A DNA stretch of 64,000 nucleotides, from assembly GCA_035510555.1 (NCBI GenBank), contig DATKGX010000048.1, positions 12,148 through 76,147 on the forward strand. The letters run 5' to 3'. A program made the translations under genes and the position numbers. Source of the stretch: Patescibacteria group bacterium. Its GTDB lineage: Bacteria; Patescibacteriota; Microgenomatia; Levybacterales; UBA12049. Under the pieces are notes generated by a model. It saw only the letters and a list, made by a program, of their open reading frames with translations. It did no database searches and had not been told where the DNA came from. Of this stretch, positions 45,502-60,318 are shown in pieces (position 1 is the first letter of the stretch; the number at the start of each line of letters is the position of its first letter).

Positions 45502-45575
45502 GCCGCCATCGTCTAGTGGCCTAGGACGTCAGATTCTCATTCTGAAGATCGCGGGTTCAACTCCCGCTGGCGGTA
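45502..45575 (+). tRNA. tRNA-Glu (anticodon CUC), 74 nt, CCA not encoded
   Basis: Hand fold. Acceptor GCCGCCA/TGGCGGT (G1-U72), D-stem GTCT/GGAC, anticodon stem TCAGA/TCTGA with loop TTCTCAT (C34 T35 C36), 5-nt variable loop, T-arm GCGGG-TTCAACT-CCCGC and discriminator A. Confidence 0.8.
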
Positions 45576-47089
45576 CTCAGTGAGAGCCCCTTATTGTCAA
45601 ACATTCGAATAGATTGATATATCGGGCTAATCTCGGTGTTGTAGCACCCCGGATACCCCCAAACCAGCCCAGAGGGAAATATTGAACACAGTAGGACTCG
45701 AATCTGGCTTAAGTTTGACATCTGATAAGTCGTTCCTAAATTGGCAAACTTTTCTTTCATAAATTTTACGATTGATTCAAGATTATATTTTGCCAACAAT
45801 GCATCATCTTTTGAAATTTGAATTGCCCTAACTTGGTCTTCAATTAACTTATTTTGCTCTTTAAATATTTCATCAGAAAAGACACCGGTTAAATTTTTCT
45901 GAATAAGTGATTGTCGAAGTTCAAATAACCTTTTTAATTCCTTATCCGCTTCATCTCGTCGTTTCTGAAGTTGTCCTACTCGTTGATAATAAGTTCTTCT
46001 TAAAAGAGCTATAAAGGCGTCTAGTCCTTCTCTTGTTGGAGTTATGCTTGATAAATACTGTATTGTTTCAGTTTGTACTTTATCAACGGAAATGGAAGGT
46101 GATTGACAACCCTTTTGACATCTATAATAAGCGTATCGGGCAAGCTTACCCTTACTCCATCCACCTGTTACCGGTTTCTTGCAAACTCCACAGATTAAAA
46201 TTCTTCTTAATGGAAATTCTTTATTGTCCATATTTCTTCTTGCAATGGGTACGTTGATATTAGTATTTCTTCCATCAATTGCCGCCTGAACCCTATAGAA
46301 AACCGCTTCCGATACCATCGGCAAATGTTGGCCTTTAATTCTTTCGGGATATTTGTCAGAAGATAATAATCCAATGTAATAACAACTTCTAAACATTCTA
46401 CTTAATGTTTGCGGTCTAATAATGTGTTCTTTACCCTTGTATCGATGTACTACTCCCCAACTATTTAAAAGGTTTGCCATTTCTCGCAAGGTTTTTGTTC
46501 CTGTCGCCATAAGTTCCCATGCCTTTTTTACTTTTTCCCAAGCCTCCGGATCTTTTACCGTATATCCGTTTTCATTTTTATAACCAAGCGGGGCGACTCC
46601 ACTTTTGAGACCCGTCAGAAATCTTGCCCGTAATCCGTTTTTTGTTCGTTCGCTTCTTACGTCATTATCCATTTGGGCAAAACTGGCAAGCATTGTTTCC
46701 ACGAATTTCTCAGTAGGGCTATTGCCTGTTGGTTCGGAAGCAGAAATAAGAGATATTTCGCACTCGACAAGTTTTCTTCTTATCGCTAGATAATCCGAAG
46801 TCTGTCTTGAAAGTCTATCTAATCTATAAATAATGAGCGCGTCAATATTTCGCTTATTCTTTTTGCAAAAATCCAACATCTCAATTAGAACCGGCCTCCC
46901 AGATATGGTTTTTGCAGAACGTCCTTCTTCCCTAAAAATCTTAATTATCCCCATCCATCTTCTTTCGGCTTCTTGTTTACATAGCTTCTCCTGTGTCCCC
47001 AAAGAAAAATTATCAACTTGCTCCTCCGTAGAAACTCGCAAATACATTATTGCCTGTTTTTGTCCAAAATTGTTTGTTATTGATTCCAT
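45557..47089 (-). CDS. Large serine recombinase (resolvase/invertase catalytic domain + recombinase domain + zinc ribbon), the island integrase
   Basis: 510 aa. N-terminal YLRVSTEEQ (catalytic Ser), ...IYRLDRLSR and zinc ribbon CGVCKKPVTGGW...YYRCQKGC. The last 9 codons lie inside the att core and the tRNA 3' end. Confidence 0.85.
   Translation of the reverse strand: MESITNNFGQKQAIMYLRVSTEEQVDNFSLGTQEKLCKQEAERRWMGIIKIFREEGRSAKTISGRPVLIEMLDFCKKNKRNIDALIIYRLDRLSRQTSDYLAIRRKLVECEISLISASEPTGNSPTEKFVETMLASFAQMDNDVRSERTKNGLRARFLTGLKSGVAPLGYKNENGYTVKDPEAWEKVKKAWELMATGTKTLREMANLLNSWGVVHRYKGKEHIIRPQTLSRMFRSCYYIGLLSSDKYPERIKGQHLPMVSEAVFYRVQAAIDGRNTNINVPIARRNMDNKEFPLRRILICGVCKKPVTGGWSKGKLARYAYYRCQKGCQSPSISVDKVQTETIQYLSSITPTREGLDAFIALLRRTYYQRVGQLQKRRDEADKELKRLFELRQSLIQKNLTGVFSDEIFKEQNKLIEDQVRAIQISKDDALLAKYNLESIVKFMKEKFANLGTTYQMSNLSQIRVLLCSIFPSGLVWGYPGCYNTEISPIYQSIRMFDNKGLSLSTASGS
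45567..45585. repeat. attL core: 19-bp direct repeat CTGGCGGTACTCAGTGAGA (covers the last 9 nt of the tRNA plus 10 nt downstream)
   Basis: Identical 19-mer at 60065-60083. Confidence 0.75.
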
Positions 47090-47092
47090 AAT

Positions 47093-47422
47093 CTACCCTC
47101 CGTTTAAAATTTCTTTTAAAGTCATCCCTTTGAACGTTTCTCTTTCATATTCATCAAGCCAACCGTCAATTAAGAATTCAAATTCCGTGACCATAATCTC
47201 TACTTGCTCGCTTGATAAAGCCTTGCCAACCTCTCCAAGAATTCCTTTTACCTGTACTACTTTTATTTCTTCGCTATGTTTTGGAAATATGGAATTTAGA
47301 GCATTTTCTATTGAAGTTTGGGGGGTAAGTTGGTTAGGCACATTGGGGTTTATTGATGTGGAACCTACCCTAGAAACGGTTTCTATTGAAGGAAAAAGTG
47401 ATAAAGTTAAAGCTTCTTGCAT
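47093..47422 (-). CDS. Small hypothetical protein (109 aa) co-transcribed upstream of the integrase, a candidate recombination directionality factor
   Basis: Acidic protein with no TM. Its stop is 3 nt from the integrase start. Confidence 0.5.
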   Translation of the reverse strand: MQEALTLSLFPSIETVSRVGSTSINPNVPNQLTPQTSIENALNSIFPKHSEEIKVVQVKGILGEVGKALSSEQVEIMVTEFEFLIDGWLDEYERETFKGMTLKEILNGG

Positions 47423-47433
47423 GTTAGTAAAAC

Positions 47434-47449
47434 TATCTCATTTGAGATA
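47434..47449. promoter_or_regulatory. Perfect inverted repeat TATCTCA-TT-TGAGATA (candidate operator) 12 nt upstream of the start of the integrase operon
   Basis: The half-site ACTATCTCA also occurs at 47461-47479 (other strand, abutting a TTGACA) and in the XRE gene promoter at about 59650. Confidence 0.45.
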
Positions 47450-47670
47450 ATTGTATATCCCGAACGAGATAGTTGTCAAGGGGTTATAGTATTCTTTTAA
47501 GTCACTTTTAGGCATGAAAATGAGCAGTCTTTTAATTTCCTCTAAGCATTGTTTAAAAGGGCAGCTTTCAGTTCCTCTCAGTGCTTGGAGGAAATTAAAA
47601 ACTATTCTTGAATAGATAAATCTATGCGTAATTTGATTTACAAGTAGACATATTCTATAATTCAGGCCTT

Positions 47671-48081
47671 ATGGGAGTAGAAGGCGGCAGTCAAGGATAC
47701 GGAGAAGAAGATGGTGGTGGAGATAATAGTCCAACAGCAACACACTATTTCCTAGAAATTGTTCAGGAGGTAGTTGCTTCTCTGGATTCTGACACAAAAT
47801 GGGATCAAGGTGTACATGAAGGAAATGCGCTGATTGCTGCGTATGGCTTGGTCAGAACTGTTATGCCTAGCGAATTACCTCAATTCGGGAGCGCGCTTAC
47901 GGACTTATCAACAAAACATCCAGAATCTCTCCTAGTGGTAACCGGAGCATATAAATTAATCAGGGAGGCATATTCTGTTGAGCAAGGACTTAGTTCGCGA
48001 GAAGTCAGGAGATTGTTAGGCTTACCTACCAAAGGAAGAATCTTTCCTACTCAAGCTGATAAATCAAATTCAACGAGATAA
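47671..48081 (+). CDS. Hypothetical protein (136 aa), Gly/Asp-rich N-terminus
   Basis: ORF preceded by TTGATT-N17-TATAAT with 9 nt between the -10 and the ATG (leaderless-type). Confidence 0.55.
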   Translation: MGVEGGSQGYGEEDGGGDNSPTATHYFLEIVQEVVASLDSDTKWDQGVHEGNALIAAYGLVRTVMPSELPQFGSALTDLSTKHPESLLVVTGAYKLIREAYSVEQGLSSREVRRLLGLPTKGRIFPTQADKSNSTR

Positions 48082-48095
48082 GTTTTATAGACCCA

Positions 48096-48124
48096 TTGAC
48101 TTCACTTAGCCTCAGTGCTACACT
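48096..48124 (+). promoter_or_regulatory. Promoter TTGACT-N17-TACACT upstream of the ATPase gene
   Basis: The spacer contains the TAGCCTCA motif (48107-48114). A 40-nt leader with hairpin GCCCTTTACGAGAGGGC (48147-48163) sequesters an SD-like GAGAGGG. Confidence 0.35.
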
Positions 48125-48164
48125 CTAGGCCACTTAGTAAACTCCTGCCCTTTACGAGAGGGCT

Positions 48165-50987
48165 ATGAATAATAGTGACTATCAGCAGGAGCTAGCATTA
48201 ATTCATCAGTTACAAACTCATACGTTTTCCGTAGGGCATGCCTATCTCCTCATTCTCTTTGGTCTTCCATTACCAATTCACTTAAAACTTGCTATCTACC
48301 ATTTCCTTACATCTCTACCGCTTCCGCAACTGTCTCCTATGCAAACAACCGTCCTCATCCTGGTCGGCCCAATCCTTTTCCTTGTATTCATGTATTTCTT
48401 TGTTAAGCTCGTAATTACTATCGTAAGAACGCTTATCCCTTTTGTTTTAACTAGATTTAAGAAGACAAAAGAAGAGAAGATATTCTTAGAGTTAACGTTC
48501 CCTTCAGATACAAGTAAGTCTGCGTATGCCACGGAGCAACTATATAAAACGATGCATACGGTAGCCGGAAGAAACAAAGGCTTTTTTTCTGTCAGGAAAA
48601 CATTTTCTTTGGAAATTGTCTCAAGCCGAAATGACGGAATTAGATATATCATTGGTGTTCCACCAGCTGATGCAGATGTTATGCGTCGAACCTTGATATC
48701 ATATCTTCCCGGTCTTTCTATCCGAGAAATTCCGGATTATCTACAAAGCATGCTGGTTGTTGAAGAAAATGAAGATGCTAAGCAAGCAACAGAGAAATCA
48801 CTTGGTTTTGTACAATTTACTCTCTCCGATGACTTTGTCTTACCTTTAGAGAACCAAAAGGTGCTCGGAAAACACGATTCCATCGCATTTCTAGCCGGCA
48901 ACATGACTAAGCTTGAAAAAGGAGAGCTTGTCGCTTTCCAGATTGTCACAAGCCCTACGGTAAGTAGCAAAGTGAGGGAACACATGCTGCGTGCGAAAAA
49001 CGCTATCTATCAAGGAAAGCCATTATCTCCGGTTTTGTTTAAAAAAAGTGCTTTACCGCTTCCCCCTGCCCTCATCCTTATCCTAGGCCCTGTTGTTTGG
49101 CTTACGGTTTCGTTTGTAAAACTTTTACTTGCCATGCCTCACCTGATCCTTGATCCTAAGGGGCCACACGCAAAATATTTTTTTGATTCAAGTTCAAAAA
49201 GTCAGCTGCAAGCTATTCTTAATCCTTATGAAATGGAACTTTCAACGGTTGTCAAAGGAAAACTCTCAGAACAGTTGTTTGAAACATCAATCAGGCTACT
49301 TATTATGACAAATACCGAGGAAGAATCTGATGCCAGACAAACCGGCCTTGTCTCCTCATTTAGTCAATTTACAAGCCAGTACCAATCATTAGTACAACAA
49401 GAAATGACTCCACTCCCATTTTTAGCTAATCAAATATTTAAGAAACGCTTCACAGATTTTCAAAAGCGTAATCTATCCAATGACAACTTAATCCTTTCTT
49501 CATCTGAAATTTCCGACCTATACCATTTCCCTAATATGGATATTACAAAAATTGAGGGGCTGGTTAAAAGTAAGAGCAGTGAGCTACCAGCACCCAGGTC
49601 CATAAAAAGAGATGATGGCGATCTTGATGTCATTGTCGGTAAGAATACCTATGGAGGAGAGGAAACAGCAGTTGGGCTAAGAAAGAGGGATCGATATCAA
49701 CATACATACATCGTCGGTAAAACGGGTATGGGAAAATCTACCATTATCGAGGGGATGGCATTACAGGATATTCAAAGCGGAAAAGGGATCTGTGTTATTG
49801 ATCCGCATGGAGACATGGTTGAGCATTTATTAACCTTAATTCCCAAAGATAGACAAAAGGATGTTGTCTTTGTTAATCCATTTGATAAAGAGTTTCCTAC
49901 AGGGCTTAATATTTTAAATCCCGGTACAAATTACGAAGATCTTGAAGAAGAACACCGAAGAATTGCCCAAACTGTGATGTCAATATTTATGAAAATAACG
50001 CCGGAAAGACATTGGGGCCAACGTATGGAACATATTTTAAGAAATGCGATTCTGACAACTCTCCTAATACAAGCAGGCACTACGAATACACCCTACATTT
50101 CCCTTTATACAATCCAAAAGCTTTTAACAGATGATAAGTATCGAAAATCTGTTACGGGAACTCTTTCCGATCCTATTTTAAAGCAGTTCTGGGAAAAAGA
50201 ATTTATGTTGTTTAGAAAAGGTCAGCAGGGGGATATGGTTGCGCCCTTAACAAATAAAATCGGAGAATTTATTACCGATCCACTCTCGCGATTCATATTA
50301 CTGCAGAAAAATAGCACCATCAATATTTCAGAAATTATGGATAATAGTAAAATCTTGCTTGTTAACCTTTCTAAGGGAAATTTAGGAGAGGAAAGAAGCG
50401 CCTTTTTTGGAACAATAATTACCTCTCTTATTCAACTTGCTACCTATCAAAGAGCACAGACTGAGGAAAAGAAAAGGCGTGATTTTTTCGTTTACATTGA
50501 TGAATTTCAAAACTTTGCAACGCCTCATTTTACCGAGCTGTTTTCAGAAGCCAGAAAATATCATGTATATTTTACCCCTTCTCACCAAAACATTGCCCAG
50601 ATTGATGATCCAAAAGTGTCAAAAGTAATTAAAGGCAATAGCGGAAACTTCATTGCTCTTAAAGGAAGCTCTGATGATGAAGAGGCTATGCTACCCATTT
50701 TCTCCCCGGAAGTAGAGAAAGGACAAATCGTCAATCTTGCTCCTTTTCATTTCTTTATGAAAGTAACCAATGATGAAAGTGAAGACGCCTTTACCGGTGT
50801 TACAATACCGGTTGAAAGTAGCGGAAGTAAAGAAACAAAGGAGGGTATTATTAAACAATCAAGACTGCATTACGCAACCAAACGGGAAGATGTTGAAAAG
50901 CAATTAGAACAGCTACTTAAAGTCGCTCCAAAGGTTCAAAAACAAGTGCTTAAAAATACAAGGATTAAAAAGAAACGATTAGCATAA
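48165..50987 (+). CDS. Membrane-anchored P-loop ATPase of the FtsK/HerA/TraD-VirD4 superfamily, a candidate conjugative coupling protein
   Basis: 940 aa. N-terminal about 100 aa with 2-3 TM helices. Walker A GKTGMGKST followed by VIDPHGDM. Walker B FFVYIDEFQNF. Confidence 0.5.
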   Translation: MNNSDYQQELALIHQLQTHTFSVGHAYLLILFGLPLPIHLKLAIYHFLTSLPLPQLSPMQTTVLILVGPILFLVFMYFFVKLVITIVRTLIPFVLTRFKKTKEEKIFLELTFPSDTSKSAYATEQLYKTMHTVAGRNKGFFSVRKTFSLEIVSSRNDGIRYIIGVPPADADVMRRTLISYLPGLSIREIPDYLQSMLVVEENEDAKQATEKSLGFVQFTLSDDFVLPLENQKVLGKHDSIAFLAGNMTKLEKGELVAFQIVTSPTVSSKVREHMLRAKNAIYQGKPLSPVLFKKSALPLPPALILILGPVVWLTVSFVKLLLAMPHLILDPKGPHAKYFFDSSSKSQLQAILNPYEMELSTVVKGKLSEQLFETSIRLLIMTNTEEESDARQTGLVSSFSQFTSQYQSLVQQEMTPLPFLANQIFKKRFTDFQKRNLSNDNLILSSSEISDLYHFPNMDITKIEGLVKSKSSELPAPRSIKRDDGDLDVIVGKNTYGGEETAVGLRKRDRYQHTYIVGKTGMGKSTIIEGMALQDIQSGKGICVIDPHGDMVEHLLTLIPKDRQKDVVFVNPFDKEFPTGLNILNPGTNYEDLEEEHRRIAQTVMSIFMKITPERHWGQRMEHILRNAILTTLLIQAGTTNTPYISLYTIQKLLTDDKYRKSVTGTLSDPILKQFWEKEFMLFRKGQQGDMVAPLTNKIGEFITDPLSRFILLQKNSTINISEIMDNSKILLVNLSKGNLGEERSAFFGTIITSLIQLATYQRAQTEEKKRRDFFVYIDEFQNFATPHFTELFSEARKYHVYFTPSHQNIAQIDDPKVSKVIKGNSGNFIALKGSSDDEEAMLPIFSPEVEKGQIVNLAPFHFFMKVTNDESEDAFTGVTIPVESSGSKETKEGIIKQSRLHYATKREDVEKQLEQLLKVAPKVQKQVLKNTRIKKKRLA

Positions 50988-51015
50988 TTGTCCTCGATGT
51001 TGAGGACAATATTTT
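50988..51015 (+). terminator. Intrinsic terminator hairpin TTGTCCTC-gatgtt-GAGGACAA followed by TATTTT
   Basis: 8-bp perfect stem and a U-rich tail directly after the ATPase stop codon. Confidence 0.6.
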
Positions 51016-51127
51016 AGGCAATTTGAGCATAAATTAAAGATAAATTGTGACACCTACCCTTACCAAATACGGAGTATATTATACGGTTGGGTATGGCATA
51101 AATACTAAACTTACAAAAAATAACTTA

Positions 51128-51922
51128 ATGACACAACTAAACCTAACAAACAAACAACAAGAAATATTAACACTAATCCCTAGATTTAGATTCTTAGACA
51201 GAACCCATATCCAAACATTCTTAAAACATAAAGACAAGAAACGAATCAACAGCTGGTTAAAAAACTTAACAGAAAAAGAATACATACAAAGAATATATGA
51301 CAATCATATTGTGGGAAAGAATAGAAGAGCTGCTATCTTTTCTTTAAATAACAACGGAGTAAGATTTGTAAAAGCTTTAGGAATATATGACAGATCTTTT
51401 ATTCATAAACTGTATTGGGACAAAGACAGGTCTGATGCGTTTATTGAGCGCTGTCTATTTATTGCCACAATCTGTTGTGAGCTTGAAAAGAAAGAAAGCA
51501 ATATGCTGCATTACGAATACGCAACTGAAAGCGATTTCTGTGATCCAACTAACCCCTTTCATTTTTTAAAAGTTTCTAAATTACCAATCGATTTATACTT
51601 TAAAAAAAGAAAGGGAAGATTAACAAAGCATTTTCTACTGACATTATTTGAGCAAACTCTTCCGCGTTACAGACTACGAAAAAGGATTAGGGATTATCTA
51701 GAATTTTACTATAGTAATGACTGGAAGAATCTTACAAATACTAAATTTCCCACGCTATTATTTGTGTTTCAAACAAAAGAGCGCATGATTTATGCAAAGA
51801 GGTATATCAAAACGCTGTTTGATGATGATAGCCCTGATGATTTATCAATCAATCTCGCGGTAGCTAGCGACGTACAAACCGAAGGTGGCGTTACTGGAGA
51901 GATTTGGGAAGAGGTTGAATAA
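51128..51922 (+). CDS. Replication-relaxation (Replic_Relax, PF13814-like) family protein candidate
   Basis: ORF track starts at 51047. MTQLNLTNKQQEILTLIPRFRFLDRTHIQTFL matches the winged-helix N-terminus of replication-relaxation proteins from Gram-positive plasmids/ICEs. Confidence 0.45.
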   Translation: MTQLNLTNKQQEILTLIPRFRFLDRTHIQTFLKHKDKKRINSWLKNLTEKEYIQRIYDNHIVGKNRRAAIFSLNNNGVRFVKALGIYDRSFIHKLYWDKDRSDAFIERCLFIATICCELEKKESNMLHYEYATESDFCDPTNPFHFLKVSKLPIDLYFKKRKGRLTKHFLLTLFEQTLPRYRLRKRIRDYLEFYYSNDWKNLTNTKFPTLLFVFQTKERMIYAKRYIKTLFDDDSPDDLSINLAVASDVQTEGGVTGEIWEEVE

Positions 51923-51923
51923 A

Positions 51924-51957
51924 AATCCTACCGCTTCGGTTAGAAAGCGGTAGGATT
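51924..51957. terminator. Bidirectional terminator hairpin (13-bp perfect stem AATCCTACCGCTT / AAGCGGTAGGATT, loop cggttaga) between convergent genes
   Basis: Lies between the 51922 stop (+) and the 51964 stop (-). Confidence 0.65.
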
Positions 51958-51963
51958 AAAGCC

Positions 51964-52272
51964 CTACTCTTGTGGTTCGTGTAGCTTTTTAATTTCTGAA
52001 AGCCTGATAGGCTTAAAATACATGTCCCTTTCAATACTTAAATCCATCGGACCCTTAAGGTTTTGCAGTTCGGAAAGACTAAAATATCCTAACTCTGGAT
52101 AGTCTCCTGCTACGTAACCGAAAAAAGAATCTTTTCCGTCAAATTCTATGCCGTACCATTTCCAGCTTGTCCAAACAGCAAAGAATTTACAAACAACCAT
52201 CGGATCTTTCTCGTTTTCTTGAGAATAGAGTGCCGGCAATGCTTTTCTTAGTTCTTCTGTTATTAGTTTCAT
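51964..52272 (-). CDS. DUF2958-like protein (small protein common on conjugative plasmids)
   Basis: 102 aa. ...ALPALYSQENEKDPMVVCKFF...WKWYGIEFDG...FGYV.G...ELGYFSLSEL. Has a strong SD (AGAGGGGGTGA) 5 nt upstream, unlike its neighbours. Confidence 0.45.
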   Translation of the reverse strand: MKLITEELRKALPALYSQENEKDPMVVCKFFAVWTSWKWYGIEFDGKDSFFGYVAGDYPELGYFSLSELQNLKGPMDLSIERDMYFKPIRLSEIKKLHEPQE

Positions 52273-52304
52273 ATTTCACCCCCTCTCTTTTTAGAATTTG
52301 TTTT

Positions 52305-52400
52305 TAGGAAGCAAACCTGCTTCCTATACCAGAGACGAAATATGCGGGGTGAAGATTACAAGAGCGAAGCAAAGACTTCGTTTATATACTCTTGTAATCT
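52305..52400. repeat. Cluster of inverted repeats: a candidate oriT or structured RNA
   Basis: IR1 TAGGAAGCA-aacc-TGCTTCCTA (52305-52326). IR2 has a 12-bp stem AGATTACAAGAG (52353-52364) / CTCTTGTAATCT (52389-52400) enclosing the nested hairpin CGAAG-caaaga-CTTCG (52365-52380). Confidence 0.4.
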
Positions 52401-52436
52401 GAGGGGTGCAACCCTTAGAAACACTAAATGTAAAAC

Positions 52437-52466
52437 TTGAAACTAAATTTATTGTTAAACTATAAT
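52437..52466 (+). promoter_or_regulatory. Promoter TTGAAA-N18-TATAAT, 6 nt upstream of the kinase ATG (leaderless)
   Basis: TATAAT at 52461-52466, then gagtaa, then ATG at 52473. Confidence 0.5.
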
Positions 52467-52472
52467 GAGTAA

Positions 52473-52982
52473 ATGAATAAACCAATATTATATATTTTAA
52501 GCGGTATGTCTTTTGCTGGAAAATCAGTATTAGCGAGAGAAATTGCTAAAACAAAATCTATTCCATATATTGATCCCGATGAGGTTTCTCGAGAAAGAGG
52601 ACTTGGACTAAATGGTGAATTTATTCCAGAAGAGATTTGGAAAGACATACATAAGGAAGCGGAACAGAGAGCCATAGAAATTTTAAAACAAGGAAAAAGT
52701 TTGGTTTATGATACAACTGCATTAATTAAAAAGGATCGTGATTATTTAAGAAATTTAGCTAATGAAAATGGAGCTGAACCATTAGTTATAATTGTAAACA
52801 TTTCTAGAGAAGACGCTTTTAAGAGATGGCAGGAAAATAATACAACCAATGAAAGATATGCAGTTCATATTAATGATTTTAATATGTGCGCTGATGGTTT
52901 TCAATTTCCCAAAGATGACGAGAAATTCATAGTCTATCAAGCTGGTCAAAATATTACTGAATGGCTAAGGAAAATAAATTAA
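52473..52982 (+). CDS. Small P-loop kinase, chloramphenicol-phosphotransferase-like (CPT/AAA_33 family)
   Basis: 169 aa. P-loop ILSGMSFAGKSVL resembles the CPT P-loop ILNGGSSAGKS. Leaderless. Confidence 0.45.
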   Translation: MNKPILYILSGMSFAGKSVLAREIAKTKSIPYIDPDEVSRERGLGLNGEFIPEEIWKDIHKEAEQRAIEILKQGKSLVYDTTALIKKDRDYLRNLANENGAEPLVIIVNISREDAFKRWQENNTTNERYAVHINDFNMCADGFQFPKDDEKFIVYQAGQNITEWLRKIN

Positions 52983-53081
52983 ATCTACGAAGCGGAAACC
53001 ATTGCGCCCTTCAGAAGAAGTAGTACTTGATCAATCGTGAAAGTACCAAAAGAGGGGCAAGACCCCTAAGAAGCTTTCTGA

Positions 53082-53087
53082 TATAAT
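53082..53087 (+). promoter_or_regulatory. Extended -10 (cTGaTATAAT), 6 nt upstream of ATG 53094 (leaderless)
   Basis: ctgatataat-caactc-ATG. Same arrangement before the other cassettes. Confidence 0.5.
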
Positions 53088-53093
53088 CAACTC

Positions 53094-53807
53094 ATGGAAG
53101 AAGAAATAAAAATCCCCCTTGGAGATAATAAGTTTGCTTATGGCACTCTAAGAGGAAACCTTGATCAACCCCTTATAATATTTGCTCACGGATTTACAGG
53201 AGATAAGAATCATCACATTTTTTTCAATGGTGCTAGGTTTTTTGAGAAACATGGAATTTCTTCATTTAGATTTAATTTCTATGGCGAGGAAGAAGATTCT
53301 AGGCAGTTAAATGATTGTAGCATCTCAAATCATGTCTCCGACTTAGATACAATAGTGTCATATTTTAGAGATAAAGCCAAAAACATTATTGTTGTTGGAC
53401 ATAGTTTTAGCGGAATAATAATACTTTCATCAAAAAAACAGCAGTTTGATAAAGCTATACTTTGGGATCCATCTTCTGATACTAAGAGCTGGTTAGTTAA
53501 AGACGCTAAATATATAAAAGAGCTTGGTCTATATTATTTCGATGACTGGGGAGTGTCATATACAATTGGAAAGCAGATGTATCAGGAATGCGTCGATTTT
53601 AACCCCGATCACCTATCCTCAAAATTTACAAAACCACTCAAAATAATTGTCGCAGGCAATGGAATACTTAAAGACGGTGGCCGAAAATATTTTGAACAAG
53701 CAAATCAGCCTAAAGAATTTGCTGTTATTGAGGGTGCGAGCCACAACTTTAATGAAGATGGGGTGGAAGAAAAGTTATTTCAAGAAACCCTTAATTGGAT
53801 AAAATAA
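53094..53807 (+). CDS. Alpha/beta hydrolase fold protein
   Basis: 237 aa. HGFTGDKNHH followed by the nucleophile elbow VVGHSFSG. Confidence 0.7.
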   Translation: MEEEIKIPLGDNKFAYGTLRGNLDQPLIIFAHGFTGDKNHHIFFNGARFFEKHGISSFRFNFYGEEEDSRQLNDCSISNHVSDLDTIVSYFRDKAKNIIVVGHSFSGIIILSSKKQQFDKAILWDPSSDTKSWLVKDAKYIKELGLYYFDDWGVSYTIGKQMYQECVDFNPDHLSSKFTKPLKIIVAGNGILKDGGRKYFEQANQPKEFAVIEGASHNFNEDGVEEKLFQETLNWIK

Positions 53808-53848
53808 GTTCTAATATCGTCTATCCCTCGGAGCAAATTAGCCTCAAA
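53808..53848 (+). repeat. Cassette-junction element J1 (GTTCTAATATCGTCTATCCCTCGGAGCAAATTAGCCTCAAA)
   Basis: Begins 1 nt after the stop codon. Related copies at 54534-54577, 55105-55121 (partial), 56001-56040 and 56573-56620. TAGCCTCAAAA alone occurs at 57142-57152. Confidence 0.6.
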
Positions 53849-53893
53849 TAGCGTACATTTTACCTGCCCATACTCTACTCAACCATTATCCTA

Positions 53894-53908
53894 TTGACAA
53901 TTTGTCAA
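53894..53908. promoter_or_regulatory. Perfect palindrome TTGACAA-T-TTGTCAA overlapping the -35 hexamer of the 53939 gene (candidate operator)
   Basis: 7-1-7 inverted repeat. TTGACA-N17-GATACT promoter, then about 10 nt to the ATG. Confidence 0.45.
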
Positions 53909-53938
53909 TGATTAAGGATACTATAGACAGAGAAAAAT

Positions 53939-54532
53939 ATGACAGAACCAATAGACGCATCAAGGGGAGTTCCTGCTCCAGTAGAACCAACGGGTGAACA
54001 ACCTCAAATTCCTCAAGAGGATAGATATATATTTAATCCAGCAGAGTTTGACGAAAAAGCCGCAGCTGAGCTAAGAAGACATGAGGAATGGCTTAGGACT
54101 GAGGGCTGGAGAGAAGACAGAGCCAGGGAAACTCTTGATAGACAAAGACAAGATTTGGCTGAGAATAGAACTTGGTGTGAGGCTTATTCTGGGAAAGTGA
54201 AAAGAGAATGGGGCTGGGGGGAAGTGAATGAAAATGCTGGCTACCCATCTTGGGCTCACATAATTACAGATATTGAAGACCAAGGAGTACCTCTAACAGC
54301 TGTGGAGATTGATGCTGCTATAGACTATCCGCTATGGCATGTACCTGTATCTCTCGGAGAAAACAGGCCACTAACTCAAGAGCAACTAGACAGGTTAGCA
54401 ACTAAAAAGAACATGGTACGAGCAAAAACTTTTGAAAAAGACATTGCAGATGCCCAGTTGCGTATGGGTGTAGAACCTCAAGTGGTACAGCACGCTGTAG
54501 GTTTAAATCAAGCTGCTGGCCGAGTTGTATAA
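53939..54532 (+). CDS. Hypothetical protein (197 aa), acidic and Arg/Glu-rich
   Basis: GC-richer codon usage than its neighbours. No motif recognised. Confidence 0.55.
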   Translation: MTEPIDASRGVPAPVEPTGEQPQIPQEDRYIFNPAEFDEKAAAELRRHEEWLRTEGWREDRARETLDRQRQDLAENRTWCEAYSGKVKREWGWGEVNENAGYPSWAHIITDIEDQGVPLTAVEIDAAIDYPLWHVPVSLGENRPLTQEQLDRLATKKNMVRAKTFEKDIADAQLRMGVEPQVVQHAVGLNQAAGRVV

Positions 54533-54533
54533 C

Positions 54534-54577
54534 TAGCCTCTAACATCCTCTATCCCTCGGAGTTACGTAGCCTCAAT
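54534..54577 (+). repeat. Cassette-junction element J2
   Basis: ctagccTCTAACATCCTCTATCCCTCGGAGttacgTAGCCTCAatt, followed by tgTGaTATAAT at 54583-54588. Confidence 0.55.
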
Positions 54578-54582
54578 TGTGA

Positions 54583-54588
54583 TATAAT
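54583..54588 (+). promoter_or_regulatory. Extended -10, 9 nt upstream of ATG 54598
   Basis: tgtgatataat-cccctaaat-ATG. Confidence 0.45.
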
Positions 54589-54597
54589 CCCCTAAAT

Positions 54598-55116
54598 ATG
54601 CCAGAAGGAGATAATTCACAAAGACAAGAAGTAGCAAGAAATGCAGAATTCGCCGGAATAATGGCAGAGGCGATAAAAAGACATGTTCAATATCCAGATA
54701 AATCAGCAACTGAACATGAATATCTGCTAGGATCTCTCGAAATTCCTGTAACTTTTTACTATCAAGGTGCTTCAAGATGTGCAATAAAAATAGACTGGAA
54801 TGACGATTGGGATGTAACTTATCACGTTGATCCTGAAGGTGTAATTAAAACAGGCTTTATTGACCCAAGAGAAACAACCGGTGACCCTTGCACATTCTGG
54901 GAAAATGATCCAGCGGAAATTGAAGACCACAAGCGTTTTGGGCGTAGATTTCTTCCTGCGCCTGCTGCCAATTCAATAGAGAAAAGTTTAATTAGTCAAT
55001 TAGCACAACATCCAATGCAAGGACAAAAAATCCTGTTGGATATTGCGGAGCATGCAGCGTGGAAAAATTATGAGATATGCCCCCAATTCCTCTCTGAACC
55101 AGAGGGAGCAAATTAG
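54598..55116 (+). CDS. Hypothetical protein (172 aa)
   Basis: Leaderless ORF. Its 3' end contains the GGAGCAAATTAGCCTCA junction core. Confidence 0.55.
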   Translation: MPEGDNSQRQEVARNAEFAGIMAEAIKRHVQYPDKSATEHEYLLGSLEIPVTFYYQGASRCAIKIDWNDDWDVTYHVDPEGVIKTGFIDPRETTGDPCTFWENDPAEIEDHKRFGRRFLPAPAANSIEKSLISQLAQHPMQGQKILLDIAEHAAWKNYEICPQFLSEPEGAN

Positions 55117-55136
55117 CCTCAGAAAGCAGCTTCTGC

Positions 55137-55142
55137 TATAAT
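55137..55142 (+). promoter_or_regulatory. Extended -10 (cTGcTATAAT), 7 nt upstream of ATG 55150
   Basis: TAGCCT lies 17 nt upstream at the -35 position. Confidence 0.45.
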
Positions 55143-55149
55143 CAGTCCA

Positions 55150-55590
55150 ATGACTTATTCAACTCACAAATTAAAACAAGAAGATCTTAGTAGTTTTGTT
55201 GATTTATGGAATCAAGATCCTGAAGCTTTAGCAACAAGTAAACGTGTGATGACATTAGATTTAGCACAAGATGGGTTTAAAGAGAATTATTTTGATTACT
55301 ATTTTGGTCTGTACGAAAATAATAAACTAATTGGCTTTATTCTTATAAAGAATATCGATGATAATATTTGGTTAAAACATATGTTAATTGATAATGGCGA
55401 AAGAGGGAAAGGGCTTGGAAAAATGTTTTTATCGGAAGTTCTCAAAATTGTTAACAATAGAATATTAACGGAAGTTGTTGAGGACAATGATAGGGCAAAA
55501 AAGTTTTATATAGATAATGGTTTTAGGGAAATTCGTTTTGATCAAGAAAGTAGGGATTATATTTTGGAATATATCCCATCACTGATATAA
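55150..55590 (+). CDS. GNAT family N-acetyltransferase
   Basis: 146 aa. Motif A ...IDNGERGKGLGKMFLSEVL. Confidence 0.75.
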   Translation: MTYSTHKLKQEDLSSFVDLWNQDPEALATSKRVMTLDLAQDGFKENYFDYYFGLYENNKLIGFILIKNIDDNIWLKHMLIDNGERGKGLGKMFLSEVLKIVNNRILTEVVEDNDRAKKFYIDNGFREIRFDQESRDYILEYIPSLI

Positions 55591-55591
55591 T
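55586..55591 (+). promoter_or_regulatory. Extended -10 (cTGaTATAAT) inside the 3' end of the GNAT gene, 6 nt upstream of ATG 55598
   Basis: ctgatataat-caactt-ATG. Confidence 0.45.
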
Positions 55592-55597
55592 CAACTT

Positions 55598-55999
55598 ATG
55601 AATAAAAAAGTATTAGAAATGTTTGCCAAAAGCACATTTAGCGTCTCTGAACAGAAATACATTTACGCAAAAGTTAAAAGTGTACCTACGTTATCTATTC
55701 ATTTTTTTGTTTCTCAAGACAAGGATGAAATAACTGTAGTAACTGAAGAGAATAACATTTCCTCCTTAGATTTAATCGAAAAGAATGATAATCTCTGGAG
55801 ATTAGTATCTCTTAATTTAGAAACGTCTTTTATGGCAGGGACATTAGCGATAATTAATTCTGCTTGTGCAGAAAAAGGATTGAATAACTTAATTATTTCA
55901 ACTTATTCGAAGGACTACTTAATCATAAAAGATTTACAAGCAAATCAAATAAGAGAAGTTTTGACCACTCTTGGATTTAATGAAAAATCCCTAAAATAG
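55598..55999 (+). CDS. ACT-domain-like small protein (ACT_7-like)
   Basis: 133 aa. ...KYIYAKVKSVP...FFVSQDKDEITVVTEE...STYSKDYLIIK pattern. Confidence 0.45.
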   Translation: MNKKVLEMFAKSTFSVSEQKYIYAKVKSVPTLSIHFFVSQDKDEITVVTEENNISSLDLIEKNDNLWRLVSLNLETSFMAGTLAIINSACAEKGLNNLIISTYSKDYLIIKDLQANQIREVLTTLGFNEKSLK

Positions 56000-56000
56000 A

Positions 56001-56040
56001 TTCTAATGTCCTCTATTCATCGGAGCTGCATAGTCTCAAA
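56001..56040 (+). repeat. Cassette-junction element J5 (TTCTAATGTCCTCTATTCATCGGAGCTGCATAGTCTCAAA)
   Basis: Starts 1 nt after the stop. Followed by cTGaTATAAT at 56051-56056 and ATG at 56063. Confidence 0.6.
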
Positions 56041-56050
56041 ATATTTCTGA

Positions 56051-56056
56051 TATAAT
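56051..56056 (+). promoter_or_regulatory. Extended -10, 6 nt upstream of ATG 56063
   Basis: ctgatataat-ctacct-ATG. Confidence 0.45.
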
Positions 56057-56062
56057 CTACCT

Positions 56063-56569
56063 ATGGAAATTGTTGATGTTGTTGATAAAGATTTAAACAT
56101 CCTATGCCAAATTTCAAAACAAGAAGCCCACGAAAAAGGATTACTGCATAAATGTGTTATTGCTGAGGTTACCAACTCCAAAGGCGAAATGATGCTTATT
56201 AAACCATATAGTCATAAGCAAGATGCCGGACAATATGTTTCGCCTGTTGGGGGACATGTATCTGCAGGAGAATCAGACGAAGATGCCTTGAAAAGAGAAG
56301 TTATGGAAGAAATTGGAATGAAAGATTTTACATACAAGCTCAAGGGAAAAGGAATTTTTAACAGATTCGTTCTTAATCGTCATGAGAATCACTATTTCCT
56401 TCTGTATGAAATATTTACAGACGAAGCTCCTCAGCTAGGAGACGAAGCTGAAACATATAAGTGGTTTACTAAAGAAGAGCTAAAAAAAGAATTAAAGGAA
56501 AATACTAAGGATTTTGGTGACGCATATATCTTTATTCTTAACAATTTTTACCCTGAATTATTAAAATAG
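56063..56569 (+). CDS. NUDIX hydrolase
   Basis: 168 aa. Nudix box GGHVSAGESDEDALKREVMEEIGM (GX5EX7REUXEEXGU). Confidence 0.8.
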   Translation: MEIVDVVDKDLNILCQISKQEAHEKGLLHKCVIAEVTNSKGEMMLIKPYSHKQDAGQYVSPVGGHVSAGESDEDALKREVMEEIGMKDFTYKLKGKGIFNRFVLNRHENHYFLLYEIFTDEAPQLGDEAETYKWFTKEELKKELKENTKDFGDAYIFILNNFYPELLK

Positions 56570-56572
56570 CAA

Positions 56573-56620
56573 GTTCTAATGTCCTCTATTCTTCGGAGCT
56601 CAATATTTTATCCTCAAAAA
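56573..56620 (+). repeat. Cassette-junction element J6 (GTTCTAATGTCCTCTATTCTTCGGAGCTC...ATCCTCAAAAA)
   Basis: Followed by tgTGaTATAAT at 56629-56634. The ORF-track start at 56579 is the ATG embedded in this repeat. Confidence 0.6.
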
Positions 56621-56641
56621 CCTTGTGATATAATCGAATTT

Positions 56642-57124
56642 ATGAATGAGAGATTTACTCCTCAAGAGCTTTATGATTTTATAGATAGAGCAGGCAAGGC
56701 AACCTATGCAGGAGGTGGAAAATATGAAGAGCATCCAGAGCGACCTGGATTTTTTGAATTAGTCTACGATAAAGAATTGCCTTGGTATTACAGGGATAGC
56801 TATGCAGGACATTCTAGGTCTGGAGGACAAGAGGTTGTTAGATTGAATGATGAATTAATTTGGTGGTCAGGATATGGTGGAGGCATGGTTGAAGGAAGAG
56901 AAGACATGTCCAATCAAACTTTTGATTTTCTTAAGAAGGCTCTATCCCAAGACGATGAAGGATTTAAATCTCTAAGAGGTCCTCATGAATTTGCGGATGG
57001 AGATTGGAAATATGCCTATACCCAAGATGGAGATATAACAGATTTTTATGGATATGAAGAGATTTCCTACAAAGGAGAAAAAGTGTTCTGGCACAGAGCG
57101 GTTGGCGGAATATTAAAGAAATAA
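56642..57124 (+). CDS. Hypothetical protein (about 160 aa)
   Basis: The start is re-placed at MNERFTPQ (56642), 7 nt downstream of the TATAAT. The 21-codon extension from 56579 lies inside the conserved junction repeat. Confidence 0.55.
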   Translation: MNERFTPQELYDFIDRAGKATYAGGGKYEEHPERPGFFELVYDKELPWYYRDSYAGHSRSGGQEVVRLNDELIWWSGYGGGMVEGREDMSNQTFDFLKKALSQDDEGFKSLRGPHEFADGDWKYAYTQDGDITDFYGYEEISYKGEKVFWHRAVGGILKK

Positions 57125-57168
57125 CGCCCATCCCACGAAAATAGCCTCAAAAACTAACTGCATAAAAA

Positions 57169-57531
57169 TTATTTTGAATTATACCATTGATGAAATTCTG
57201 TACATTTACCGTTTTCATCTAGGATCACTTTATAAATTCCATCTAATTCTGCCTTTTCCCCTGAAGATAATCTCGTAAAAGTTGCGTGCCAATGAGCAAT
57301 ACCAATGTTATTCTCTAAACTTAATATTTCGTAAGTTACTTTTATATCATCCTGATCTAAAACAGTTTGCCACTCTTGTAATAATTTCTCTTTAGTAGTT
57401 ATCAGGTCATCAAAAGGAGTTTCATACCATAAAAACTTTTCAGCAACCAAATCCAAAACTCCATTAGGATTTTTTGGCTCCCAAACATTTATAAGTTTTT
57501 TCAACCAATCTTCAAATTGTTCTTTTGTCAT
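57169..57531 (-). CDS. NTF2-like/SnoaL-like small protein
   Basis: 120 aa with an alpha+beta-cone-like pattern (W...W..H.AT...G). Last cargo gene, on the opposite strand. Confidence 0.4.
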   Translation of the reverse strand: MTKEQFEDWLKKLINVWEPKNPNGVLDLVAEKFLWYETPFDDLITTKEKLLQEWQTVLDQDDIKVTYEILSLENNIGIAHWHATFTRLSSGEKAELDGIYKVILDENGKCTEFHQWYNSK

Positions 57532-57741
57532 TAAAAATATTATATCAAATTACCCAGCCTTGGCGGCACAGATATTCAAATCTTCGCTAAGTAGTTATTT
57601 TTGCAGTTTACAAGAATTTTCTTCTACTTATATTTAAGTAAACATAGATGTAAGGAGCTTGATGTTAATTAAAATAATGGCGTTTATAGATTGTCTAAAC
57701 TATTAACCCAGTAAGGGGAAATCGAAAGAACTATTATTAAG

Positions 57742-58560
57742 TCACATTGCAACGTTAGTGTTTGATCCTACTTTATACACAAGAACTCTAGTGAAATTTT
57801 GTCCTGATGTGGGTCTTCTTTTTATGGGTTCGGGATTTCTTGGATCCGTCGTTTTCATGTAGTCTAGCGCACTTGCTTCTTTCCCTTCCGGCCAATCTCT
57901 GGCTTCGACAATCCCATATTTATCATTTTCTGCCCTATACCCAGTATAACTTCTAACTATATTCGTACCATCGCCCCATCTACCACCAACAGCCGGCATT
58001 AATTCTGCTTTTGTCTTATCAATCCCAAGCACATCATATGTTGACTGTATCGCTTCTTCCCTACCAACATAGTCATCCGGTATATCAACGAATACGCCAT
58101 AAGCTCCGTGTTTCTGGGTGTTTACTTCTGCTACCGCATCTAATAATGCGTCTTTAGCGTCTCTTGATTCTGGGTGTCTAGCAGCGCTAAGAGCTCTTCG
58201 TCTCTCTATCAATGTGCGCTCCGCTACAAGTAATTCTCTTGCGGCTTCAGTAACAGCAGGTATTCTTCCTAAAATCTCTTCAGCTTTAGCATCTTGTCCT
58301 AGTCTTTTTAATTCACTTGCCGCTCTATGATAGCTACTCTTAACCTCAGACGCTAGTTGCTGCTCTTCGGGATCTAGTTCCTCTGAATGAGCTTCTTGTA
58401 GTTCCGCATTCTCTGCTACTTCAGCAGATGGAACGGGCGAATATGCTCCTGCTGTTTCGGGATGTTGTTGCGGTTCAGCTGAAACGGGAGCTGCTTGTGC
58501 TTCCGCGGCTACTTGAGATGTTGCTCCGGCTGGCGGTTCTCCTCCGAATGGATTAGTCAT
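57742..58560 (-). CDS. Hypothetical protein, Ala/Glu/Pro-rich N-terminal half
   Basis: ORF track gives 57742..58596. Start re-placed at MTNPFGG (58560), which is 6 nt downstream of a CATAAT -10 (leaderless). Markedly GC-richer than its surroundings. Confidence 0.5.
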   Translation of the reverse strand: MTNPFGGEPPAGATSQVAAEAQAAPVSAEPQQHPETAGAYSPVPSAEVAENAELQEAHSEELDPEEQQLASEVKSSYHRAASELKRLGQDAKAEEILGRIPAVTEAARELLVAERTLIERRRALSAARHPESRDAKDALLDAVAEVNTQKHGAYGVFVDIPDDYVGREEAIQSTYDVLGIDKTKAELMPAVGGRWGDGTNIVRSYTGYRAENDKYGIVEARDWPEGKEASALDYMKTTDPRNPEPIKRRPTSGQNFTRVLVYKVGSNTNVAM

Positions 58561-58566
58561 AAGCTT

Positions 58567-58596
58567 ATTATGAATGAAATTTTTAGATATTGTCAA
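58567..58596 (-). promoter_or_regulatory. Promoter TTGACA-N18-CATAAT for the 58560 gene, flanked by the inverted repeat TTAGATAT/ATATCTAA
   Basis: -10 = rc(58567-58572) and -35 = rc(58591-58596). The AGCTATTGACAAT motif is shared with the TA-operon promoter. Confidence 0.45.
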
Positions 58597-58703
58597 TAGC
58601 TATATCTAAAATAATAAAGGAGCATTAATCCATTTGTAAAATCCATTGCCAATCAATAACCGCAGGCGTATAATTTTGCTAAAGAATAAATTAAATCATA
58701 TTT

Positions 58704-59522
58704 ATGAGTAAAAATTATTTTTCATTTATAGATGAAAGCGGTAATTCCTCCCAAGAAAGATATTTTGGATTGGGACTTTTGGTGATAGATGATGAAATTG
58801 GTGACTTCTATGATTCAATGAAATCTTTCTATGACAAAGCAAAAGATGTTGCTCGTGCTCAGAAAACAGCAAGAATTGCAGACCTGACAAAAAAAGAAGA
58901 ATACGAGCAGATTGCGGAAATAGCAAAAAGCACAAGAAGCTTTGAATTAAAATTTAAATATATTAATTCAACAAATAATACTATTTACAGTTCCTTGTTG
59001 GATAATTATTTTAAGTTTCCGAATGTAAGATTTTGCGCTCTTGTTATTGATAGACAAAAACAAAATACAAAATCTAGCTGGGCACCTGTTATTAACCCGT
59101 GGGAAACTTATATCTTGCAAGCATCCATGTTAATCGCAAACAATATTAAAAATATTTCTCCATGCAATCTGTGCATCTTGGCAGATGATTTAACTAGACC
59201 TTCTGATATTAAGAAGTCGTTTGAGCGTTCACTGGCGGATGCAATTAAATATAGATTAACAAAAAATAAAATGCCAGATACTGTATTTGGAGTAAGTAGA
59301 CTTGAATCGCATTCGTCTTTGTTATTACAAGTCGTTGATATTTTACTTGGTGCAGTAATGTATGATTTCAAAAAATCAGCGGGGTTAATTTCAGATAAAC
59401 TTTCTGAGAAACAAGAGATAGTTGTTGATAACTTAAAACAAAAATTGGGGACTACTAGTTTAGCTCAAAATAAAACTTATCATAAGCCAAGCTATTTTTC
59501 TGTGTGGGAATTAAGTAAATAA
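58704..59522 (+). CDS. DUF3800 family protein
   Basis: 272 aa. N-terminal FIDESGNS and C-terminal ...HSSLLLQVVDILLGAV motifs characteristic of DUF3800. Confidence 0.55.
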   Translation: MSKNYFSFIDESGNSSQERYFGLGLLVIDDEIGDFYDSMKSFYDKAKDVARAQKTARIADLTKKEEYEQIAEIAKSTRSFELKFKYINSTNNTIYSSLLDNYFKFPNVRFCALVIDRQKQNTKSSWAPVINPWETYILQASMLIANNIKNISPCNLCILADDLTRPSDIKKSFERSLADAIKYRLTKNKMPDTVFGVSRLESHSSLLLQVVDILLGAVMYDFKKSAGLISDKLSEKQEIVVDNLKQKLGTTSLAQNKTYHKPSYFSVWELSK

Positions 59523-59688
59523 AAATGCGGGTCATGGACAAGAAACCCACACCCGCATTAGTGATTATATCGTAACCGATTCTAAAATACAAAGTCAAGT
59601 GAATAAAGTATTTTGACATAGAAAGTTGTAGTTGAAAATCCTCGTGAAACTATCTCAAATTTACTCTTCGTGTTATAATACACTCGAT

Positions 59689-59898
59689 ATGGATAGTCCT
59701 GAAAACAAGAAAACGCTTGGAGATAAATTCAGAATTGCCAGAGAGGAACAAAACCTTACGCAGTTACAGGTGGCAAAAAAAGCCGGCATTAGCGTTAATT
59801 ACTACGCAAGAGTTGAAAGAGGCGATCCAGATGCAAGGTGGAGCGTTATAAATAGTATTGCTAAGGCATTAGGAATAAACGTAAAACTTCCTATTTAA
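59689..59898 (+). CDS. XRE-family helix-turn-helix transcriptional regulator
   Basis: ORF track starts at 59632. The start is preferred at MDSPENKK (59689), 9 nt downstream of TATAAT 59674-59679. HTH LTQLQVAKKAGISVNYYARVERG. Confidence 0.7.
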   Translation: MDSPENKKTLGDKFRIAREEQNLTQLQVAKKAGISVNYYARVERGDPDARWSVINSIAKALGINVKLPI

Positions 59899-59930
59899 AA
59901 TAACTGTTAAAGTTCTTTCCCTTTAGTTAA

Positions 59931-60083: not shown

Positions 60084-60318
60084 TAACGCTCAAAAAAAGC
60101 TATTTTTAGCCTCGGGATTGTGTTCAATTTCGAAGTTTTCAGAAAAATTTTTTTGAAGCTAATTTTCCGCAGACGCGATTGAGAGTTGAACACTTTCAGG
60201 GCTGTTAAAATCCAACGCCTCTGAGCATGTCGGTATAGAACCATTCTATCGTTATAGCGGTATCTCGTCCCTGATACTAAATTAGTTAGGCTAATGAGGA
60301 ATATTTCTTTTATTTGAA

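Follow-up and report, generated by a model that had tools for sequence, protein, structure and literature searches.

The stretch of DNA analysed here (the window) comprises 64,000 nucleotides (nt) of contig DATKGX010000048.1 from an uncultured Patescibacteria bacterium and contains a genetic island of 14.5 kb (45567-60083), inserted at a tRNA-Glu gene and bounded by perfect direct repeats of 19 base pairs (bp). The integration target, tRNA-Glu(CTC), lies on the plus strand (45502-45576); its 3' end overlaps the left direct repeat CTGGCGGTACTCAGTGAGA (the attL core, 45567-45585, plus strand) and the gene also overlaps the 3' end of the recombinase gene. The right copy of CTGGCGGTACTCAGTGAGA (the attR core, 60065-60083, plus strand) completes the pair, and the length of the element follows from these two positions. 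At the left end of the island a minus-strand operon encodes an acidic protein of 109 amino acids (aa) with an isoelectric point (pI) of 4.5 and no known domain (47093-47422, ATG at 47422), followed by a large serine recombinase of 510 aa (45557-47089), which has the Pfam domains Resolvase, Recombinase and Zn_ribbon_recom and whose open reading frame (ORF) begins 4 nt after the end of that of the small protein. A preliminary description of this DNA had placed a regulator gene of the XRE family at the other end of the island and, now that the repeats define the ends, the gene for this 69-aa XRE/HTH_3 protein (59689-59898, plus strand, ATG at 59689, pI 9.7) can be located about 170 bp inside the right end. 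The subject of this work is the promoter of the recombinase operon, which carries two adjacent dyad-symmetric sites with the characteristics of repressor operators.

Read on the minus strand from 47479 to 47422, the region upstream of the small gene is TTGACA / ACTATCTCGTTCGGGATA / TACAAT / TATCTCAAATGAGATAG / TTTTACTAAC / ATG. A promoter scan recovered the TTGACA/TACAAT promoter noted earlier in front of the operon, here named P_int (47450-47479, minus strand), in which a -35 element (TTGACA, 47479-47474) and a -10 element (TACAAT, 47455-47450) are separated by an 18-nt spacer and 11 of the 12 consensus positions are matched. The perfect palindrome TATCTCA-TT-TGAGATA at 47434-47449 was also found as described. 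It is the core (TATCTC-ATTT-GAGATA) of operator O2 (47432-47451), whose 20-bp extent overlaps the final bases of the -10 element and the expected transcription start. A second dyad, operator O1 (47454-47473, core TATCCC-GAAC-GAGATA at 47456-47471), departs from the dyad at a single position and exactly occupies the 18-nt gap between the -35 and -10 elements; this second palindrome had previously been missed, as had the definable ends of the island and a half-site at 59415-59423 that is discussed below. The preliminary description had also reported a third half-site abutting the -35 element. The 8-mer ACTATCTC is indeed present there on the minus strand (47466-47473), but it is one arm of O1 and not a separate site. 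The common form of the operators is a 16-20-bp dyad, (AC)TATCTC-N4-GAGATA(GT), with half-site centres 10 bp apart. The centres of O1 and O2 are 22 bp apart in the window and 21 bp apart in most relatives, and the two jointly form a 44-bp imperfect inverted repeat.

The motif counts in the window were compared with chance expectation. The 9-mer ACTATCTCA gave two matches against 0.39 expected, a number reached in 6 of 100 shuffles, and as this enrichment is weak it was replaced as evidence by dyad and weight-matrix scans. The 8-mer ACTATCTC gave five matches (1.06 expected; none of 100 shuffles reached five), four of them inside the island, and all four copies of the 9-mer AACTATCTC in the 64 kb are also in the island. 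The 7-mer TATCTCA was not enriched in the window (9 matches, 8.2 expected); its copy at attR (60079-60085) has no partner and was taken as chance. When TATCTC-N4-GAGATA was allowed up to one mismatch, only 47434-47449 and 47456-47471 were found in the 64 kb. A half-site weight matrix was then built from the operators of six elements and the window was scanned as 20-mers. O2 (24.3 bits, the top site of the window) and O1 (22.5 bits) were the sole sites above 20 bits and the third-ranked site scored 9.4. In the relatives, likewise, the two dyads were the only strong dyad matches in each, across up to 21 kb. As the dyad and weight-matrix scans single out the same two sites, it is concluded that the promoter carries two operator-like dyads. 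A scan of viral contigs for the pattern of -35 element plus O1 gave no match.

Diverged relatives were retrieved via the small protein and the recombinase. Seven of them, to which we refer by the handles L026, L040, L041, L042, L043, L044 and L046, share both dyads in the same place. The small protein of L026 is 72% identical to that of the window, and the recombinases of L041, L042, L043, L044 and L046 are 88%, 78%, 74%, 73% and 72% identical, respectively; L040 is more distant (recombinase 56%, small protein 32%). The shared layout in the relatives is a -35 element, O1, a TATACT -10 element, O2, a variable leader and the ATG, and O1 is a perfect dyad in L026, L041, L042 and L043. The eight-way alignment has 24 invariant columns, all of them within the -35 element, the four half-site cores or the -10 element, while no conservation is seen in the 4-nt spacers, in the leader, whose length varies from 4 to 34 nt, or beyond the -35 element on its upstream side. 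When three sequences were aligned, 21 of the 24 core columns were invariant compared with 1 of the 8 spacer columns (Fisher p=2.6e-4).

Other operators were found at the equivalent position in more distant elements. A sister clade (L005, L035, L036 and L037), whose small proteins are 38-50% identical to that of the window, carries just one 20-bp dyad, ACTGTCTATATATGGACAGT (ACTGTC-N8-GACAGT), which occupies the position of O2 behind TTGACA-18-TATACT. Compared with the window class, ACTATCTC-N4-GAGATAGT, this dyad is alike position by position, with symmetric differences at positions 4 and 8. In L004, which has an unrelated small ORF and a recombinase of 26% identity, a dyad TGTACAT-ACA-ATGTACA lies over the -10 element. 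The coupling-protein relatives L001-L003 were set aside as operator comparisons, having neither the recombinase module nor the motif. Conserved position, conserved dyad symmetry and class-specific sequence together are the pattern of repressor operators. The earlier suggestion that the sites at the recombinase promoter are repressor operators is thus borne out by two dyads on the core promoter with half-site cores invariant in eight diverged elements.

In principle, the palindrome could instead act in the RNA, for example as a hairpin in the leader, or have arisen by chance in AT-rich sequence. Since the -10 element ends one base before O2 (47434-47449), the transcript should start inside O2, and O2, if fully transcribed, could fold into a 6-bp hairpin of -5.5 kcal/mol. 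The z-score of this hairpin is only -1.7, however, and 11 of 200 shuffles folded equally well. O1 carries the same dyad yet sits in the untranscribed spacer, no Rfam match was obtained, and conservation is limited to the half-sites, with spacer variation that follows neither a loop nor a stem pattern. An RNA or chance origin is regarded as very improbable. A terminator or RNA-element reading was rejected on the promoter/terminator, Rfam and folding results, and an invertible promoter, suggested by the inverted half-sites 26 bp apart, was rejected because the segment is far too short.

The geometry of the promoter suggests how the operators would act. Because the centres of O1 and O2 are 21-22 bp apart, corresponding to two helical turns, two dimers would be expected to bind on one face of the DNA and to exclude RNA polymerase; protein at both sites would cover DNA that the polymerase itself occupies, as in classical repression. 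In the integrated element the two adjacent operators would keep the 109-aa protein and the recombinase off, and loss of repression would allow the two to be co-expressed, which may lead to excision. Gating of the recombinase operon by a repressor appears well supported, with the repression step itself read from the promoter geometry.

The dyads lie on the promoter of the very operon that encodes the recombinase, with transcription units diverging on either side, and combine into a 44-bp inverted repeat, features that would also be compatible with binding or accessory sites of the serine recombinase itself, autoregulating as Tn3/gamma-delta resolvase does at res. Against this, the island enzyme belongs to the large serine recombinases and lacks the small C-terminal helix-turn-helix (HTH) of the resolvases. 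Each 20-bp site is itself dyad-symmetric, which argues for one homodimer per site and not one recombinase subunit per arm, and no resemblance to the dyads is seen in the att core CTGGCGGTACTCAGTGAGA or in the DNA on either side of it. The operator class is, moreover, uncoupled from the integration target: the window element and L005 are both in tRNA-Glu and have different operators, and elements of the same class are found at different loci. The recombinase is an unlikely binder, and we consider that this explanation can be given little weight.

It seems somewhat more probable than not that an XRE-type repressor bound to O1 and O2 holds the island's recombination operon off. Half-site centres 10 bp apart fit an HTH homodimer, and the 69-aa XRE/Cro-type protein encoded near the opposite island end is the sole recognisable sequence-specific HTH protein in the island (PF01381, E=6.5e-12; PF13560, E=5.7e-12; both above the cut-offs), with ClgR as its nearest solved relative. 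It would be the likeliest binder. The islands of the window and L040 have the same operators and unrelated cargo, and only the recombinase, the small protein and an XRE are detectably common to both. All four elements covered over their whole length (the window, L005, L040 and L044) have a gene of the XRE family. In L044, from a complete 1.6-Mb genome, an 82-aa XRE-family gene is directly divergent from the small-gene/recombinase operon and both O1 and O2 lie in the 132-bp gap between them. The charge of the proteins points in the same direction, as the XREs have pI values of 9.5-9.8 whereas in all eight elements checked the small protein has a pI of 4.4-5.0 and a net charge of -2.5 to -10. 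By elimination, charge and gene neighbourhood, therefore, the XRE protein is the leading but unproven candidate, with a roughly even chance of being the binder of O1/O2.

Several observations weigh against the assignment to XRE. The L044 XRE is only 27% identical to that of the window and has the recognition helix NSSYIAYVE in place of SVNYYARVE, although the operator class is the same; the co-variation of helix and operator is consequently equivocal, as L044 breaks the pattern seen with three elements. L044 also has a second palindrome, ATGGCAATAA-N5-TTGATTGCCAT, near the XRE start, and this could be that protein's real site. For L042, L043 and L046 the search for an XRE-family gene covered up to 10 kb upstream of the promoter and was negative, although this is not decisive, since the distance from operator to XRE gene in the window is 12 kb and those islands may be longer. 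There is no full operator at the XRE gene's own promoter in either the window or L040. Finally, no anti-repressor, M78 protease or self-cleaving S24 domain was found in the scanned island ORFs, and the window XRE is a bare 69-aa HTH.

Most of these points would be accounted for if the dyads are operators and the binder is not XRE. It might be a regulator supplied by the host, an island protein that has escaped recognition, or the 109-aa protein if it represses its own operon, and the small protein is the only gene that always adjoins these operators. The small protein is strongly acidic, however, and belongs to no DNA-binding family. Searches of PDB and PHROG gave no significant match for either it or the 136-aa protein encoded on the other side of the promoter, and a structure prediction for the 109-aa protein was unusable (mean predicted local distance difference test score, pLDDT, 50). 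Its similarity also ignores operator class, as the window protein is 32% identical to that of L040 (same class) and 39% identical to that of L005 (the other class). It is unlikely to be the binder; its position in the operon makes a recombination directionality factor possible. A host factor is difficult to reconcile with the variation in operator class among elements in closely related hosts at the same tRNA. A binder other than XRE is an alternative to which we give clearly less credence than to the XRE protein.

The preliminary description had further proposed that XRE is autoregulated through a recurrence of the motif just upstream of the -10 element of its gene, at 59650-59660. The recurrence is real but its position is 59649-59657, where the 9-mer ACTATCTCA is contained in an isolated consensus half-site AACTATCTCA (59648-59657, plus strand) at the -35 position of the XRE promoter. 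The 9-mer lies 17 nt upstream of TATAAT (59674-59679, preceded by TG), and the promoter consists only of this extended -10 element (TGtTATAAT, 59671-59679), without a -35 element of its own. The second isolated half-site, AACTATCTC (59415-59423, minus strand), is in the 3' end of a DUF3800 gene, 266 bp upstream of the XRE start. Neither site has a dyad partner, the hexamers 4 nt away matching GAGATA at one of six positions, and no dyad or other palindrome was found in 59560-59720. Two further candidates were discarded: the conserved stretch TATAATACACTCGATATGGATAGT, considered as a hidden operator of the XRE promoter, agrees with the dyad in no more than 7 of the 12 core positions, and a dyad-like site at an XRE promoter in L002 was treated as unrelated, since the XRE encoded there is HigA-like, 94 aa long and has another recognition helix.

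Comparison with other islands gave the same picture. The motif at 59649 is absent from the XRE promoters of L021, L029, L040, L005 and L003. The L021 protein is identical to the window XRE, and the DNA shared with the window extends only from 59669, in the -10 element, to 60060, just before att; upstream of the -10 element the L021 sequence is diverged, 11 nt shorter and without the motif. In L029 and L030, with XREs of 72% identity, only the stretch from the -10 element to the ATG is common with the window. The XRE promoters of L040, L005 and L003 have a different conserved sequence, TG(t/a)TATACTATCC(T/A)TATATG, which contains no dyad. As the half-sites are alone, without dyad partners and without counterparts in islands with the same or a related XRE, autoregulation via 59649 is not supported.

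What, if anything, the two half-sites do is finely balanced. They could be non-functional, whether by chance or as vestiges, leaving one regulated promoter and no network, and we judge this about as probable as its opposite. In its favour are their single, partnerless state, the location of the 59415 site within a coding region and the missing counterparts just described. On the other hand, about 0.004 such 9-mers would be expected in the 275 bp upstream of the XRE start (base composition, both strands) and two exact ones were found, so that pure chance is improbable; the restriction of all four AACTATCTC copies of the 64 kb to the island also speaks against chance. The 59649 site, being located exactly where the missing -35 element would be, could be a weak auxiliary site. 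The half-sites near XRE are, therefore, real but not full operators, and at most weakly auxiliary or vestigial. If vestigial, they could derive from an ancestral layout like that of L044, where the regulator gene and the operon are still adjacent, split by insertion of the cargo.

The surroundings of the XRE gene vary between islands. In L021 (8219-10372) a 392-bp module identical to window 59669-60060 is joined to wholly different cargo, and the XRE gene there adjoins genes for an M78 (ImmA/IrrE-type) peptidase and a DUF4411 protein. The XRE gene and the island end form a module that is exchanged between islands. In L029 (885-1100) a G+C-rich, structured-looking stretch followed by a terminator hairpin lies directly upstream of the XRE -10 element and is possibly a small RNA gene.

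Between the recombinase and XRE genes the island contains a 136-aa ORF, genes for a 940-aa type IV coupling protein (T4CP) and a 291-aa Replic_Relax-like protein, a DUF2958 gene and assorted cargo. A divergent promoter (47633-47661, plus strand, TTGATT-17-TATAAT, from the promoter scan) serves the 136-aa, T4CP and relaxase-like genes; some 150 bp separate it from the operators, and neither O1 nor O2 extends into it. The T4CP (48165-50987) has TrwB_AAD_bind and TraG-D_C domains above the cut-offs. The 291-aa protein (51047-51922) scored 19.7 bits for Replic_Relax, below the cut-off of 25.3, and also matched the PHROG 'replication initiation by nicking' (E=5e-6). A domain scan of the island ORFs found no VirB4 or pilin genes. 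The pair of coupling-protein and Replic_Relax-like genes recurs in L001-L005, L043 and L046, which come from Patescibacteria and other uncultured lineages, and L042 has the Replic_Relax-like gene without the coupling-protein partner. The conserved Replic_Relax-like member of the pair is possibly a divergent relaxase.

A candidate origin of transfer is an inverted repeat (47530-47551 / 47579-47600; 22-nt arms, 91% complementary, 27-nt loop) situated between the divergent promoters and ahead of the genes for the coupling protein and the relaxase-like protein. Next to it, a 44-bp segment (47474-47517) is 89% identical in L004, whose recombinase is, as stated, only 26% identical.

Several cargo genes share signals of their own. 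Each is preceded by a conserved CTGATATAAT-N6-ATG, containing an extended -10 element, at 53066-53099, 55582-55612, 56035-56068 and 56613-56646, and as the start codon comes 7 nt after the extended -10 element the cargo mRNAs would be leaderless; the XRE promoter is similarly near-leaderless. A conserved 38-nt element (TCTAAT..TCTATCCCTCGGAG..AGCCTCAA) follows each such cargo gene (53810-53847, 54539-54576, 56002-56039 and 56575-56612), so that the cargo looks like a string of self-contained cassettes. In L046 (3272-5147), a relative with the same operators, the cargo includes a diversity-generating retroelement with a bAvd accessory gene and a reverse transcriptase.

All contigs retrieved for the window population, about 20 near-identical sequences from peat and bog metagenomes, carry the island in place. 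The recombinase belongs to a large family (987 relatives at E<=1e-60), and tRNA-Glu(CTC) adjoins the recombinase also in L004 (45-121) and L005 (7952-8026). As the L004 and window enzymes are 26% identical, this tRNA appears to be a hotspot for unrelated recombinases. The right end of the island with the att core is duplicated in the window (59925-60079 and 60928-61082, 77% identity), and a ParE/Phd toxin-antitoxin pair (60319-60838) lies between the two copies, outside attR. The second copy appears to be what is left of another element that had integrated in tandem at this tRNA site and has decayed. On the other side of the island the window has some 40 kb of dense minus-strand ORFs (324-40681), roughly 30 genes of 200-790 aa, and from 37093 onward, where it overlaps with related contigs, the Pfam matches include the glycosyltransferase and PMT_2 families.

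The control mechanism proposed for the recombinase operon is ordinary mobile-element regulation and in itself not surprising. To our knowledge almost nothing is known of gene regulation or of the control of mobile elements in this Patescibacteria lineage, and the value of the analysis lies in a precise map of promoter and operators for a mobile element of an uncultured member. As the operator has at least two related specificity classes, the system could also be used to study the evolution of immunity-like specificity, with the prediction of cross-repressed islands in natural communities as a possible application. A broader interpretation, which is tentative and on balance doubtful, is that the window element belongs to a large family of mobilizable islands of Patescibacteria with diversifying operator classes that act like immunity groups, in which the T4CP and Replic_Relax-like pair supplies a divergent relaxase. 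A 2025 survey found type IV secretion systems to be widespread in Patescibacteria and relaxases to be rarely detected, and remarked that very different relaxases might await discovery (PMC12102498). If the interpretation is correct, a divergent relaxase of this kind would let those secretion systems move DNA, a point that the survey left open (PMC12102498). With TATCTC-N4-GAGATA, ACTGTC-N8-GACAGT and, in L004, TGTACAT-N3-ATGTACA as the operator classes, several related islands could then coexist at one tRNA.

Phages and integrative elements are textbook cases of excision or integration promoters under repressor control. Among integrative elements, the island most resembles the integrative and mobilizable elements, of which those with serine recombinases have been reviewed (PMC5704250). 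The site-specific recombinase is encoded at an end of the island, a tRNA gene flanked by direct repeats is the target, the cargo is variable, and coupling and relaxase-like proteins are encoded without mating-pore genes, the relaxase match being below the Pfam cut-off. As read from its sequence, and except for this weak relaxase match, the island would fit the definition of such elements, and it differs from the reviewed elements (PMC5704250) in its host, an uncultured (Levybacteria-like) member of the Patescibacteria. With the Tn3/gamma-delta res system it shares a serine recombinase promoter region with several dyads between divergent genes; unlike the resolvases, the 510-aa enzyme has Recombinase and Zn-ribbon domains and no C-terminal HTH of the resolvase type, and the dyads are unrelated to att.

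A closer parallel in regulation is ImmR/ImmA of ICEBs1 from Bacillus subtilis, where, as proposed here, an element-encoded XRE-type protein acts on an excision/recombination promoter. The window island has no ImmA-type M78 protease, although in the variant L021 an M78 gene stands beside the identical XRE, and it differs from ICEBs1 in having a large serine recombinase instead of a tyrosine integrase and an XRE gene that is not co-transcribed with the recombinase. A recombinase operon in which a large serine recombinase is preceded by an acidic partner protein is also unlike both ICEBs1 and the phage switches. In comparison with the Cro/CI-type (XRE, HTH_3) switches of temperate phages such as 434 and P22, the candidate repressor gene is 12 kb from the operators and not adjacent, its own promoter has no full operator (none at 59560-59720), and neither a cro-like antagonist nor a cleavage domain or an anti-repressor could be found in the island. 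There are also similarities: the island encodes a small HTH_3 protein, its operators are dyads whose half-sites are centred about 10 bp from one another, several of these operators lie side by side on the core promoter elements and, as in phage immunity groups, related islands carry diverged operator classes.

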